Part shown: positions 3,702 through 11,448 of the stretch, in pieces
How the letters are laid out: each line of letters starts with the position of its first letter
Position numbering within the stretch: the first letter of the stretch is position 1
IMG/VR virus record: IMGVR_UViG_3300046387_001332
Direction: 5' to 3' (one strand)
Origin: a virus
DNA: 64,000 bases
Notes under the pieces: generated by a model
Database searches by the model: none
What the model saw: the letters and a program-made list of their open reading frames with translations, nothing else
What the model was told of the DNA's origin: nothing
Program-made: the position numbers and the translations under genes

Positions 3702-5810
3702 ATGGCAACACTACAAAACAGATCAGCATTTAATTTAAGAGGGTGTCAACCAATTGGTGGTCAGGCACTACAAACTACATCAAGTTCATGTGATGCTGAT
3801 GTTCTTGAGAATATATATGAACAAGTAAAGCAAGCAGCCAAAGACTACAGATGGGAGTCTGAAAGAACTACATTACGAGCAAAACTTACATACAATTGTC
3901 CTAAAGTTGGTGATGCAGTAAGATGGGACCCTAAAATAAATGGATTTAATTTAGCATACGCAATGTATGATACTAACAATCCATCCGACCAAGAGCACCT
4001 AATAGAAGTTGTTGGTATCGTAGAAAGTGTTAGTGTAACCTGCGATGGTTCGGGTAGTGAAATAAACGCAAACGAAACCGAAACAAATGCAGTAATAGTA
4101 ACTTCCGGGAAAGTATCATTTGATCAACTTAAATCAGAATCATATCTTGAAAGTGGGAAAGTTTACTATTTGTGGGACAGAAACCATCCTGCTCATGTTG
4201 CACTTGGTAATAATGTTTCATCTGATGTACATGAACCGATAATCAGTAAACCACTTTTTGTTTCAACAGGAACAAACACCGGAATGGTTTTAAATTATCG
4301 TCCCATGACAGGTTCACCAACGGGTGGTAGAGCACAAACAGAAAAGTATGAAATTGATATAGTAAAAACGGCTGCCGAAGGTGGTGGTTGGTTCATAACA
4401 ATAAAAAACATAGGTGGAATTGCATCAAGACACCCACTAATTGCCCAGATTGACTATAACAGAAGAACCGGACCAAGAGAGTCACTGAATGGTCAAGAGG
4501 TTCATACTATGTTCAAAAACATAGGAATTCTTCATAGCAAGGCAGTTGCCGATCAACATCCAACGGACACACTTGAATCAGAAACATCTTTTTATGTTAC
4601 AAAAAATTCTGAGTTTGGTATTAGTGGAGGAATTTCGGATAATATAATTGATGGACTAAACGGAGTCGGTGAAATTACCGTAACACTTAAGTCAAATACG
4701 GCAAATACCCAAAGTTCATCGTTACTAAAATCATTAATACCATTTCAAACAAGTCCAACTGCTCGTAGATTTCCAAACATCAAAGTACGTGGTGAGTGTG
4801 CATATGCGAGTCAACGAGACAACACAGAATCAGAAGACGAAAACAATTTATACATTGACAACAACGACACGGATATTCCAGACTTGGTTGTTTCTCCATC
4901 TGGTGCATCAACTGCGTATAGTTTTGAAGGTGTAATCTTTGAAATTACACTTGAAAAAGATGCTCAAAATGAAGAAATTTATGTGCCAATGGCAGATGAA
5001 ATGTATTTTAAAATAGATAGTCCAAGTTTAGACGAACCAATTATTAACAAATTTAAACTAACCGCAGAGCAGACTGCCGTAGAAATTATACCAGTCAACG
5101 AACTAGGTGAGGGTATAACAAAAGAAAATGTAACTCTGTCAGTAATAACACAGGACGGAGAAGAACTAAACATTAAACATTGGGGAAGAACCATACAACA
5201 ATCTTCGTATATATGTGATAGTGAAAGATGTTGTGATGAAGATAAAGTTACTGTTGATGTTAATGATGGTCTCACAAATGCTTCTGCAAAACTTGAGGAT
5301 TTATTAGTGGCAGACGGAGATAGTAAATTTATGACAACCGGTGTTAACGGAAAAACAATAGACACAACACCAAGATTACATACACTTGATCCTGAAAAAA
5401 CAATAGACTTACCATCAGGAACACCATCGAATGGATTAAGGTGTACATTTAAAAACGCACGTGAAAACACTATATTCTGTTATCCAAAGAATGTATTATC
5501 GGGAACACAACCCTCATTTATGGCAATTTACTTTAACGAAGCAAGACAAGGTACACTAGGCATAAGAAACGCAAAGGATTACGATCCACGATATATAGCA
5601 ATAGAAATAGGTGGTCAAGATACACTTAATGGTGCAGTTGTTACCGTTACATTAAATTCCGGACAAGAAAATGAGTGTTGCATAGACTTTAAGTTTGATG
5701 GAAGTGCAAACGGAACACACTATACATTCAGAGAACTATATCAAGCAGGATTAATTGTAAAAAGATCAAGCAACTCTGACATATTATTTGGAATAGAGGA
5801 TGGGGTGTAA
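3702..5810 (+). CDS. Putative virion structural protein
   Basis: Shares the VGDAV...EVVGIV...GKVYYL...SKPL...NYR domain with 1549..3303; SD GAGGA. Confidence 0.55.
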   Translation: MATLQNRSAFNLRGCQPIGGQALQTTSSSCDADVLENIYEQVKQAAKDYRWESERTTLRAKLTYNCPKVGDAVRWDPKINGFNLAYAMYDTNNPSDQEHLIEVVGIVESVSVTCDGSGSEINANETETNAVIVTSGKVSFDQLKSESYLESGKVYYLWDRNHPAHVALGNNVSSDVHEPIISKPLFVSTGTNTGMVLNYRPMTGSPTGGRAQTEKYEIDIVKTAAEGGGWFITIKNIGGIASRHPLIAQIDYNRRTGPRESLNGQEVHTMFKNIGILHSKAVADQHPTDTLESETSFYVTKNSEFGISGGISDNIIDGLNGVGEITVTLKSNTANTQSSSLLKSLIPFQTSPTARRFPNIKVRGECAYASQRDNTESEDENNLYIDNNDTDIPDLVVSPSGASTAYSFEGVIFEITLEKDAQNEEIYVPMADEMYFKIDSPSLDEPIINKFKLTAEQTAVEIIPVNELGEGITKENVTLSVITQDGEELNIKHWGRTIQQSSYICDSERCCDEDKVTVDVNDGLTNASAKLEDLLVADGDSKFMTTGVNGKTIDTTPRLHTLDPEKTIDLPSGTPSNGLRCTFKNARENTIFCYPKNVLSGTQPSFMAIYFNEARQGTLGIRNAKDYDPRYIAIEIGGQDTLNGAVVTVTLNSGQENECCIDFKFDGSANGTHYTFRELYQAGLIVKRSSNSDILFGIEDGV

Positions 5811-7983: not shown

Positions 7984-8481
7984 ATGAAAAACTACGGATA
8001 TAATAAGTCCACAGGAACAGGACTTGGTAAACACGTTCCAAATTTAAGAGACGAATTTTTAACTCCATTCGACTCTATTTTTGACAAAATGGTCAATCAA
8101 GCATTTCCAAACTTCGGACAGGAATTCGGAGTAAACTTTTTTGGAAATAGTTCATATCCAAGAGTAAATGTTGCAGACACGACCAAAGAGGTAAGAATTG
8201 AAGCAGAAATTGCAGGACTTGGAAAAGAAGATGTCTCTGTTGAATATGAAGATGGGTTGCTCACAATTTCAGGTGACAAAAAGACCGAAATTGAAGATCC
8301 AGATGTAAAATATGTTTACAAGGAACTGAAAAGGTCCTCTTTTAAAAGGTCTTTTAAGGTCGATAAAACAACATTAAATGTTAATAAGATTTCCGCAAAG
8401 TTTGACAACGGAATTCTAAATATTACTATTCCAAAAAAAGAAGTAATTGAAACAAAATCAAAGAAGGTTAAAATCCTTTAA
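7984..8481 (+). CDS. Small heat-shock protein (Hsp20/alpha-crystallin)
   Basis: YPRVNV, AEIAGLGKEDVSV, LTISG, SFKRSF, AKFDNGILNITIPK. Confidence 0.93.
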   Translation: MKNYGYNKSTGTGLGKHVPNLRDEFLTPFDSIFDKMVNQAFPNFGQEFGVNFFGNSSYPRVNVADTTKEVRIEAEIAGLGKEDVSVEYEDGLLTISGDKKTEIEDPDVKYVYKELKRSSFKRSFKVDKTTLNVNKISAKFDNGILNITIPKKEVIETKSKKVKIL

Positions 8482-8507
8482 TTATCTAACTTAAACAACT
8501 TAAAAAT

Positions 8508-8536
8508 AAAAGGGGGTAAATTTACCCTCTTTTTTT
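8508..8536 (+). terminator. Rho-independent terminator after hsp20
   Basis: AAAAGGGGGTAAA/TTTACCCTCTTTT inverted repeat followed by a T run. Confidence 0.75.
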
Positions 8537-8614
8537 ATAACTATATTATATTTATACATATAATAATGTGTGTTGGTAGAATTACGAAAATAGAAAAGGG
8601 AGATATGTATTAAT

Positions 8615-9709
8615 ATGAAGTTATTTACTGCTATTATAGGCGGACTCGCACTTGCAGTAGCAGGAACGGCTGCTTTCTTTTCGGTGCGTGGTATTGGGTT
8701 ATTATTTGCAGGTGCGGCCATTGCAGCCATGGTTATGGCAGGAGTATTAGAGGCAGGAAAACTTGCAATGACTTCATTTTTGTATCGTTATTGGGAAAGA
8801 ATTCCAAGAATGTTAAAATGGTATTGCACAATTGCAGTTGTAGTTTTGATTGGAATTACTTCTTTGGGTATTTACGGATTTTTAAGTGATGCATATGATG
8901 ACACACGATCAAGAGTTGAAATGCACGAAAGTAACATAGAGACACTAAACAAAGAAATAGTAGTTATTGAAACTGAAATTGAAACACTTAAAAACACAGA
9001 TGTAACAGTTGAAGATAAAAAGACCGAAACGATTGCAGGTTTCCAAAAGATATATGATGATTTTGTAGCAGACGGAAGAAAACGACAAGATGCACTTGCT
9101 AATAGAAATAAAACCGACACAGAAGCAAGAGGACTACGCAGACAACAATTAATGGATCGTCTTGCAGTATTAGATAAATCTAAAAGTGAATTAGAATCAA
9201 AGGGTGGTGGGTTATTTAGTAACAATAAAAAGAAAATAGAAGAACTAAGGATAGCACAACAACCTGAAAGAGATTCTATCGCAAAGTCACTATCAGCAAT
9301 AACAGACGAAGAAACTTCCGCAACAAAATCATATAACGATGCTCTTGCAAAAATAGACGATCAGATTTCAAGTGAATACGATAAATTTGTGGAAAAAGTA
9401 AATGGTCTTCGTGATACAACAAACGATTTAGATAATGTAACTATCATAGAAGACAAGTATGATAAAATAAAAGAAAACCAAGCAGATATATTAAAAGAAA
9501 AAGAAGGAATCCGTGCAACCGATATTGGTAGTTTTCGTTTTATAGCAGAATCATTTAATATGCCAGTAGACCAAGTTGTAAAATGGTTTATTATTGTAAT
9601 TGTTTTGGTATTTGATCCCGTTGCAGTTGCACTTGTGTTAGCATACAACATTATGGTAGGCGGAAGAATGACCCTTGGAGAAGAGTTACCGAAAAAAAAA
9701 ATTGGATAG
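8615..9709 (+). CDS. Membrane protein (N-terminal TM helices, long coiled coil, C-terminal TM); zero-frame product of a putative frameshift gene
   Basis: Hydrophobic N-terminal helices, heptad-rich middle, [21 protein letters not shown]; ends PKKKIG* across an A10 run. Confidence 0.8.
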
Positions 9710-10416
9710 ATAATTTACCATTTGCTGACCGATTCCAAGAAGATGGTGATTTTATAGAAGATGTAGTTGAAGAAACACCAACTCCAACTCCAACTGAGAC
9801 ACCAACTCCAACACCAAGTCCGTCTCAAACTCCAACACCAAGTCCGTCTCAAACTCCAATTGAGACACCTACTCCAACACCAAGTCCTTCTCAAACTCCA
9901 ACCGAGACACCAACTCCAACACCAAGTCCGTCTCAAACTCCAACACCAAGTCCGTCTCAAACTCCAACCGAGACACCAACCCCAACACCAAGTCCGTCTC
10001 AAACTCCAACACCAAGTCCTTCTCAAACTCCAACACCAAGTCCTTCTCAAACTCCAACACCAAGTCCGTCTCAAACTCCAACTAGGACACCTACTCCAAC
10101 ACCAAGTCCTTCTCAAACTCCAACCGAGACACCAACTCCAACACCAAGTCCCAACATAACACCATCTCCGATAATAGAAAACAAAAAGATACGAAAAGAT
10201 GATGAGAATGTAATTTCAACACCAATGTACGATACAGAACTAGAATCAAAAGGACCGTATTATGTACCTTGGAAAAAAAGTTCAATGGACGCACATAGTA
10301 AATATTTTGCAAAAACAATATACAAGAATAATAAAGGATATATACCAAATAGTACCCTTGGAAATGTACCAACTAAAGAAAAAAAAGAAGAATCTGACAA
10401 TAAAGATGGTAAATAA
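9700..10416 (+). CDS. -1-frame mucin-like (Thr/Pro/Ser) extension of 8615..9709
   Basis: Frame is open from 9616 to TAA at 10416 with no ATG before 10225; reads [43 protein letters not shown]...; entered at the A10 run 9692-9701. Confidence 0.65.
9775..10152 (+). repeat. Coding tandem repeat: 24-bp ACTCCAACACCAAGTCCKTCTCAA (TPTPSPSQ) units interspersed with 18-bp TPTETP-like units
   Basis: Directly visible; variation among the 24-bp units is at third codon positions of the TPTPSPSQ frame (CCG/CCT, ACT/ACC). Confidence 0.9.
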
Positions 10417-10428
10417 ATTACTTAAACA

Positions 10429-10458
10429 TTGACAAATCAACTATTTAAGGGTTATTAT
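10429..10458 (+). promoter_or_regulatory. Sigma70-type promoter for the small membrane protein/sigma factor pair
   Basis: TTGACA 10429-10434, TATTAT 10453-10458 (18-nt spacer); ATG at 10466. Confidence 0.5.
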
Positions 10459-10465
10459 TTAAAAT

Positions 10466-10717
10466 ATGACTGTGTATATTTTTAGTGGATTGGTATTAGT
10501 AGTTCTTATTTTATTGTATATAATTTTTAATTTATATAGAAAAGTTTCGTTATATGAAGAATGGACAATTGAAACACTAAACGAGTTAAACTCTACAGTT
10601 GAAACATGGAAAGAGTTAGACAGTAAACAATTATTTGAAAAAGATGATGAAGTTGGAGTCATCTTTGATGAACTTAATATAACAATAAAAAACCTAGAGA
10701 AAAGGCTAGACAATTAA
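10466..10717 (+). CDS. Small single-pass membrane protein
   Basis: N-terminal hydrophobic helix; TAATG overlap with the next gene. Confidence 0.7.
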   Translation: MTVYIFSGLVLVVLILLYIIFNLYRKVSLYEEWTIETLNELNSTVETWKELDSKQLFEKDDEVGVIFDELNITIKNLEKRLDN

Positions 10718-11448
10718 TGGAAGAAGTAAAATTCAAGAAAAAAAGAAAACCAAGATCAAAAAACAAAAAAATATACTTTTCGCAAGATACAGAAGATGCA
10801 ATTGTAGAATATAATAATTCAGAAGATGTAATTTTCAGAAATAATATATACAACGAAAGAATAAGTTACGCATTCGATAAACTAGCGGAAAATATTTTAA
10901 ATACATTTAAGTTTTCTTATTTTCAGTGTAGTCACGAAGAGGTACAACAAGAAGTTGTTAGTAATTTAGTAAGTAATATACACAAGTATAAACAAGGAAA
11001 CGGAAAAGCATTTTCCTATTTTAGTATAATTGCAAAGAATTTTTTAATTTTATATAACAATGGAAACTATAAAAAATTTAAAAGACACGAAAGTGTTGAT
11101 GACGAAGAAATAATTTACGAAAAGAAAGAACTCACGGTCAATCCAAAAAGTGAAACTCATAAAAAAGAATTAAGTGAGTTTGTAACATTAATGATTGCGT
11201 ATTACGATAAACACCTAGAACGATTATTTAAAAAGCAAAATGAATTTAAAATTGCGTGTGCAGTTATTGAAATATTCAGAAGAAGTGACTCAATAGAGAA
11301 TTTTAACAAAAAAGCACTTTATCTGTATATCAGAGAAATGACAGATTGTAAAACACAGAATATCACAAAAGTTGTAAATAAAATGAAAGATATCCAGTCT
11401 CAGTTAACACGGTCATATATTGACAAAGGTTATATTGACATGGATTAA
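10717..11448 (+). CDS. Phage sigma factor (gp55-like, probably late transcription)
   Basis: Region-2-like helices ending KAFSYFSIIAKNFLI (compare the gp55-family NPFAYFTQI motif); N-terminal YF...AIVEYN. Confidence 0.7.
   Translation: MEEVKFKKKRKPRSKNKKIYFSQDTEDAIVEYNNSEDVIFRNNIYNERISYAFDKLAENILNTFKFSYFQCSHEEVQQEVVSNLVSNIHKYKQGNGKAFSYFSIIAKNFLILYNNGNYKKFKRHESVDDEEIIYEKKELTVNPKSETHKKELSEFVTLMIAYYDKHLERLFKKQNEFKIACAVIEIFRRSDSIENFNKKALYLYIREMTDCKTQNITKVVNKMKDIQSQLTRSYIDKGYIDMD

Follow-up and report, generated by a model that had tools for sequence, protein, structure and literature searches.

A run of ten adenines (A10) close to the 3' end of a membrane-protein gene in an uncultured marine T4-like phage is very probably a genuine programmed recoding site, from which a 364-aa protein and an extended isoform of about 600 aa would be made. 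That two such isoforms exist had been proposed in the first-pass annotation of the locus, and the proposal of a recoding site is supported by the invariance of the run among related loci and by selection in the -1 frame behind it. With moderate confidence, the run is taken to act as a site of transcriptional slippage. It would be a deeply conserved case of recoding outside the usual examples of phage tail chaperones and IS elements. Gene callers split the locus into the 364-aa protein and fragments or spurious antisense ORFs, and hence the 600-aa isoform of an abundant uncultured marine T4-like phage lineage is missing from protein databases. The class of mechanism is well known; for the site in this phage gene family no description was found in the literature searched, which is weak evidence of absence.

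Slip site and reading frames

The sequence was taken from IMG/VR (record IMGVR_UViG_3300046387_001332), and the whole stretch analysed, 64,000 nt with 32% G+C, is referred to here as the window. It carries T4-like genes for a baseplate wedge protein, the large terminase, the portal and the major head protein, and the gene neighbours include a glycosyltransferase, an HD phosphohydrolase and hsp20. The membrane-protein gene is located between hsp20 and a baseplate hub-like gene.

The frame-0 ORF of this gene (8615-9709, + strand) encodes the 364-aa short isoform, which ends in PKKKIG; its 3' end reads CCG AAA AAA AAA ATT GGA TAG. The A10 run occupies positions 9692-9701 (+ strand) in the phase AAA AAA AAA A, with the CCG codon immediately 5' of it. 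The frame-0 TAG stop (9707-9709, + strand) lies five bases 3' of the run and its position is kept in all relatives; when read in the -1 frame, this stop arises from an invariant ATA or GTA codon followed by G. The open stretch of the -1 frame covers 9616-10416 and, counted from the AAT codon at 9700, gives 238 residues, the fusion being 600 aa long. No ATG, GTG or TTG occurs in the -1 frame upstream of 10225, a stretch of 203 codons in the ORF listing of the window. The ORF end, the run, the open -1 frame with its 238 residues and the lack of an ATG before 10225 had all been described in the first-pass annotation, and each was confirmed in the sequence.

The extension can be divided into three parts, all on the + strand. 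Its first 19 codons (9700-9756) encode a conserved acidic junction peptide that starts with NWIDNLPF and ends with GDF. This is followed by Thr/Pro/Ser-rich tandem repeats (9774-10156), which were detected with TRF as a 24-nt unit encoding TPTPSPSQ and its variants; the extension includes about 11 such units, and the repeat region is a flexible linker of approximately 130 residues. The C-terminal module (10192-10416) comprises 74 aa and a TAA stop and contains short conserved motifs, namely 15 protein letters (not shown) and Y.P.ST.GN.

Signals around the gene were sought by consensus scan, which provides weak evidence. A promoter-like site was found 5' of the gene (8553-8582, + strand), and a stronger, near-consensus sigma-70-like promoter (TTGACA, 18 nt, TATTAT; 11/12) at 10429-10458 on the + strand. 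The latter is positioned directly 3' of the extension stop and 5' of a small ORF for a TM protein (10466-10717). After hsp20, a hairpin rich in G+C with a T run behind it (8508-8536, + strand) resembles an intrinsic terminator and separates hsp20 from the membrane-protein gene. Between 9709 and 10416, the same type of scan, with the same weak evidential value, detected neither promoter-like nor terminator-like sites.

Conservation of the run and of the -1 frame

More than 1400 homologues of the protein were found, and the close ones (64-98% identity) all end in PKKK[IT]G. For the comparison of nucleotide sequences, 46 related loci were collected from ENA, JGI and IMG/VR; they come from dozens of metagenomes and encode proteins 64-98% identical to that of the window. 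In all 46 the run is A10, neither shorter nor longer, its phase is that of the window, and the frame-0 TAG follows at a distance of five bases; in those whose contig continues, 138-360 codons can be read in the -1 frame without a stop. A metagenome collection was also scanned with a pattern accepting A9 to A12. This gave 29 homologous sites, every one of them with A10, the six remaining matches being unrelated sequences. The homologous sites include TARA records and one record with the accession prefix AACY, which belongs to the assemblies of the Global Ocean Sampling. Variants with A8, A9, A11 or A12 were absent from the 46 loci and 29 sites. The check on homologues that had been suggested, for a conserved terminal A-run with an open -1 frame, was positive in the 46 loci as far as their contigs extend.

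To look for an uninterrupted homologue with this tail, 1.84 billion representative proteins were searched with a profile built from the C-terminal module. The search gave 18 matches, all of 37-251 aa and most of them starting at the Met encoded at 10225, and none was fused in frame. A word-index search with the C-terminal module for longer proteins returned one protein of 155 aa, and a blastn search of positions 8000-11000 against a phage collection gave no match. It was considered whether the interruption is a homopolymer sequencing or assembly error within a single 600-aa ORF. The first-pass annotation had pointed out that an 8-A or 11-A run, or homologues that are always uninterrupted, would speak against recoding, and neither was found. 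The general error-proneness of homopolymers is all that could be put forward for an error; the same length was observed in all 75 loci and matches, from many samples and assemblers, and the uninterrupted form was not detected among the 1.84 billion representatives. The error was thus rejected on account of the invariant A10, and its probability is close to nil.

It had also been suggested that the tail is phase-variable, replication slippage toggling genomes between A10 (short form) and A11 or A8 (long form). Homopolymers of this length are indeed mutable, and the clades of the family vary in run length and in its relation to the frame. However, a switching locus should show both states among independent assemblies, and the run length was invariant in 46/46 loci and 29/29 scan sites even with a pattern allowing A9 to A12, these being consensus assemblies that could conceal minority run-length variants. 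Phase variation is hence regarded as extremely unlikely.

Evidence that the sequence behind the run is read in the -1 frame came from an alignment of the relatives. In the sequence that immediately follows the run, the first, second and third codon positions of the -1 frame carry 14, 9 and 20 variable sites, the third being the most variable. In this frame pN/pS is 0.22, while the two remaining frames have values of 0.84 and 1.85. In one relative (L001) the -1 frame opens just 16 nt 5' of the run, without a start codon, and the junction peptide is still conserved. The extension measures 181-357 aa among the relatives, with a linker of variable length, and the frame is preserved through the repeats to the C-terminal module in 37 of the 38 complete loci. 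In the alignment of the C-terminal module, 14 columns are invariant. The contrast in pN/pS, the conservation of the junction peptide and the C-terminal module, and the changes in repeat length that keep the frame together argue that the -1 frame is translated.

A reading without any recoding would have the gene end at 9709, the downstream sequence being a decaying remnant or a small gene in its own right with its start at ATG 10225. This is how gene callers annotate the locus, and the profile matches that mostly begin at the 10225 Met agree with it. Against it stand the purifying selection in the -1 frame immediately after the run, the frame kept across changes in repeat length and the lack of a promoter-like or terminator-like site between the two parts. 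Moreover, the Met at 10225 is replaced by Leu in L001, L004, L007 and L039, and conserved residues precede its position. An independent small gene is unlikely in view of the -1-frame selection and the non-conserved Met, and the reading without recoding as a whole is very improbable.

Some peculiarities of individual loci were noted in the repeat region. L036 is the sole complete locus that loses the frame inside the repeats, so that an out-of-frame repeat replaces the C-terminal module; this probably results from mis-assembly of the repeat. The contigs L008, L012, L016, L020, L022, L025, L026 and L028 end 40-330 nt past the run, inside the Thr/Pro repeat, which is a recurrent assembly breakpoint in metagenome contigs of this phage lineage. 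In L001, L003 and L041 (about 4160-4500), the junction peptide is separated from the Thr/Pro linker by an extra Cys/Trp-rich domain of approximately 110 residues.

Slippage by the polymerase or by the ribosome

The A10 run is the sole homopolymer of at least nine nucleotides in the 64 kb, both strands considered. Matches to 9-mer homopolymers number two in the window, which overlap each other, as compared with a mean of 27.9 in shuffled sequences. The census of A runs gave 56 of A7, ten of A8, none of A9 and one of A10, while a first-order Markov model predicts about 14 A runs of nine or more. In-phase A_AAA_AAA heptamers are found 30 times elsewhere inside the ORFs of the window. Among long ORFs there are nine KKK tripeptides; only the one at the slip site is encoded entirely by AAA and the other eight are interrupted by AAG, the share of AAA among Lys codons being 79%. 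Since 30 bare heptamers are present and runs of nine or more are missing elsewhere, the phage tolerates the heptamer and avoids the longer run except here.

The Pro codon before the run (9689-9691) was examined in 28 distinct sequences and is CCG in 26 of them and CCC in two (L034 and L040), never CCT. CCG is the rarest Pro codon of the phage (8% of Pro codons) and CCC accounts for 9%. The use of these rare codons points to a constraint at the nucleotide level on the 5' flank of the run.

The first-pass annotation had proposed a mechanism of the dnaX type, with an upstream Shine-Dalgarno (SD)-like element and a 3' stem. Both elements do exist in the window. The GGAG is located 11 nt 5' of the run (9677-9680, + strand) and is shared by close relatives, but it is absent at this position in L001, L004, L034, L038, L039 and L040. 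The 9-bp stem-loop (9715-9749, + strand; arms 9715-9723 and 9741-9749) begins 13 nt 3' of the run, and the local fold of the window (-11.6 kcal/mol, z = -1.37) is not significant. Of the 26 distinct sequences, 23 leave the central pair of the stem unpaired, and the consensus fold amounts to -1.77 kcal/mol. In a covariation test, 77.8% of the cells were paired as against 78.1% in shuffles, and no covariation was observed. As neither the GGAG nor the stem is conserved, a dnaX-type mechanism was not upheld.

In the proposed mechanism, most transcripts would contain a faithful copy of the ten A's and would give the 364-aa protein, translation stopping at the TAG at 9707-9709. T4-like phages use the host RNA polymerase, and on the T10 template this enzyme would realign the nascent RNA in some rounds of transcription, adding one A or, more rarely, removing two. 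Ordinary translation of the slipped mRNA would then pass from Lys362 into the -1 frame. The resulting 600-aa isoform would consist of the membrane/coiled-coil core, the acidic junction peptide, the Thr/Pro linker of about 130 residues and the 74-residue tail. Short and long isoforms would probably co-assemble via their common core, such that a set fraction of the subunits is tailed. We infer the polymerase as the slipping machine, and likewise the isoform ratio, the co-assembly and the cytoplasmic tail.

Several observations were counted in favour of the polymerase. There is no conserved SD-like site or 3' structure, and what is conserved is a run length of at least nine. The 30 heptamers and ten A8 runs are tolerated with no other run of nine or more, and KKK is interrupted by AAG. 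The RNA-DNA hybrid is depicted with a length of 9-10 bp in the review by Atkins et al. (2016; PMC5009743, Figure 18 legend), and the cliff between A8 and A9 in the window falls at about this length. In the wider family, a tract of at least nine A's stays at the domain junction while the frame of the tail changes among clades, and in one member (L058) the tail lies in the +1 frame, which a simple -1 tandem slip does not reach.

The competing explanation is a -1 frameshift, or sliding, of the ribosome on poly-A, in which both Lys-tRNAs on A_AAA_AAA would slip back by one base and pair again, with no need of dedicated stimulators; it would yield the same 600-aa protein from an unaltered A10 mRNA. 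That the run contains the in-phase A_AAA_AAA heptamer in every locus of the first clade, i.e. that of the window, and even A_AAA_AAG in L129, speaks against slippage of the polymerase and for the ribosome. The frame-0 stop two codons past the run in all loci is also in accord with a ribosomal event, and E. coli ribosomes slide on iterated AAA codons (PMC4363877). On the other hand, the SD-like element and the 3' stem, which starts 13 nt after the run in the window, are not conserved; the heptamer alone cannot mark the site, given the 30 other in-phase copies in ORFs of the same window; and neither the conserved length of nine or more nor the +1 tail of L058 is accounted for. A ribosomal event is therefore considered unlikely, though it is not a negligible possibility. 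Insertion of one A and a -1 ribosomal shift give an identical protein, so comparative data cannot separate the two cleanly. The A8/A9 cliff of the genome and its AAG-interrupted KKK codons serve as an internal control, which makes the question of polymerase versus ribosome a testable one.

The membrane protein, its family and known systems

The AF2 model of the 364-aa core (mean pLDDT 79) comprises three N-terminal TM helices, an antiparallel coiled-coil hairpin, an amphipathic helix and TM helix 4. One helix, about 130 residues long, connects TM helix 3 with a conserved tip (residues 196-203), beyond which return helices follow. On this model, the core is a membrane-anchored antiparallel coiled-coil hairpin. 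Charges counted in 45 family members gave a net +3.0 for loop 2, about -1.6 to -2.0 for the hairpin flanks and +1.2 for the segment after TM4. By the positive-inside rule, these values suggest an N-in/C-in topology with a periplasmic hairpin and a cytoplasmic tail. The extension had been called mucin-like in the first-pass annotation; this describes its composition only and is not supported as a statement on function, since the same rule would place the tail in the cytoplasm.

The C-terminal module was modelled with low confidence (mean pLDDT 59.5). It is probably disordered until bound, and in the model it looks like a series of short putative binding motifs strung along a flexible tether. 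If tailed and untailed subunits of a membrane-anchored coiled-coil protein are made in a fixed ratio, this would point to a tether under stoichiometric control. In the working model, a substoichiometric tether would bring a partner from the cytoplasm to a phage protein that spans the envelope.

Database searches offered little on function. Pfam gave nothing above the cut-offs for the core or the extension, and only coiled-coil noise for distant relatives. Matches to PHROGs were weak or of low complexity; with regard to a possible Rz-type i-spanin, there was only a weak match to PHROG 739 (E 0.002), over a coiled-coil stretch. A Foldseek search of the AF2 core against the PDB returned generic antiparallel coiled coils (SMC arms, EmrA), none with E <= 0.001. 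The ESM Atlas gave only virus-only clusters of "hypothetical proteins", with no functional match.

Homologues also occur in cultured phages. That of Pelagibacter phage Mosig (L060) adjoins a putative glucosaminidase and a GH108 gene, and that of Flavobacterium phage immuto (L061) is found near a holin and a chitinase. A link to lysis or envelope remodelling is possible on the basis of these neighbours, which provide a lead rather than evidence.

The poly-A junction was followed into more distant parts of the family. A second clade, about 45% identical, likewise has a run, of A9 to A11, where its last TM helix is joined to the tail. The tail of this clade is in frame 0 in L050-L054, in the -1 frame in L049, L057 and L059 and in the +1 frame in L058, some of the out-of-frame members being short contigs of low coverage (3.3 for L049) in which errors are possible. 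The third clade has a Thr/Pro-rich -1 extension after A10 (L112) or A9 (L129). In L132 the run is A9 and the tail is in frame, and in most of the distant members, as in cultured Mosig and immuto, the tail is in frame and there is no run. In L058 the run is A10 (2624-2633), and the junction, KKKNLDNI, resembles KKKNWIDNL of the window's clade, a likeness that may reflect a shared origin of the two junctions. In L059 (289-900), a short contig, an HNH endonuclease gene is found two genes upstream of the family member.

It is possible, though put forward only tentatively, that the run between the last TM helix and the tail serves as an ancient isoform switch throughout a membrane-protein family that is widespread among large aquatic myophages, the alternate form being supplied by slippage of the host RNA polymerase. 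As part of the same tentative reading, lineages would differ in whether the unedited frame encodes the long or the short form (in frame with A9; out of frame, by -1 or +1, with A9, A10 or A11). If true, this would parallel P/V editing in paramyxoviruses and would represent conserved, utilised transcriptional slippage in tailed dsDNA phages.

Among known systems, the Mosig and immuto proteins (Mosig_00157 and 35A_85) are similar to the window's protein in having N-terminal TM helices, a coiled-coil hairpin and a motif-bearing last TM helix. They differ in their in-frame tails of about 80-120 aa, the lack of an A run and, unlike the window, a location beside lysis-type genes (glucosaminidase, holin, chitinase).

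The G/GT tail assembly chaperone of lambda is likewise a conserved phage recoding, by which some of the product is lengthened at its C-terminus. Its gene context, protein and slip sequence are different, the present gene lying between hsp20 and the baseplate hub region. The first-pass annotation had held that the target is a membrane protein and not this familiar chaperone, and rightly so: TM helices and a coiled coil were found, no chaperone family was matched, and a G/GT frameshift was ruled out on these grounds together with the different gene context. With E. coli dnaX (A_AAA_AAG, an SD-like site and a 3' stem-loop), the phage site shares an in-phase Lys-codon heptamer, a close frame-0 stop and two products with a common N-terminus. 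The two stimulators of dnaX are, however, not conserved at the phage site, and the shifted product of dnaX is the shorter one, whereas that of the phage is the longer.

The nearest precedent with experimental support is bacterial and is found in the tssM genes, for which transcriptional frameshifting has been described (Gueguen et al. 2014). In Citrobacter rodentium tssM1, an A11 run without an SD element or structure gives about 20% of the product as the long form; transcripts with 10-15 A's have been measured and both forms are required (PMC4256274). This gene and tssM of Yersinia pseudotuberculosis (PMC4256274) resemble the phage locus in that poly-A occurs near a premature stop in a gene for an inner-membrane protein, with a short and a C-terminally extended form and no SD element or RNA structure nearby. 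TssM and the phage coiled-coil protein with its four TM helices belong to unrelated families. The phage run is A10, which would need one additional A to enter the -1 frame. Furthermore, tssM represents a "rescued" interruption in a few strains, while the phage site is conserved across relatives 64-98% identical.

In paramyxoviruses, related lineages differ in the form that is encoded by the unedited frame, and lineages of the phage family differ in this respect too. Polymerase slippage in paramyxovirus P/V and potyvirus P3N-PIPO (Atkins et al. 2016, PMC5009743) also resembles that proposed for the phage site in that a homopolymer at a domain junction leads to alternative C-termini. The difference is in the machinery: these are RNA viruses with viral RNA-dependent polymerases, whereas in the phage case a host DNA-dependent RNA polymerase would slip on the genome of a dsDNA phage.
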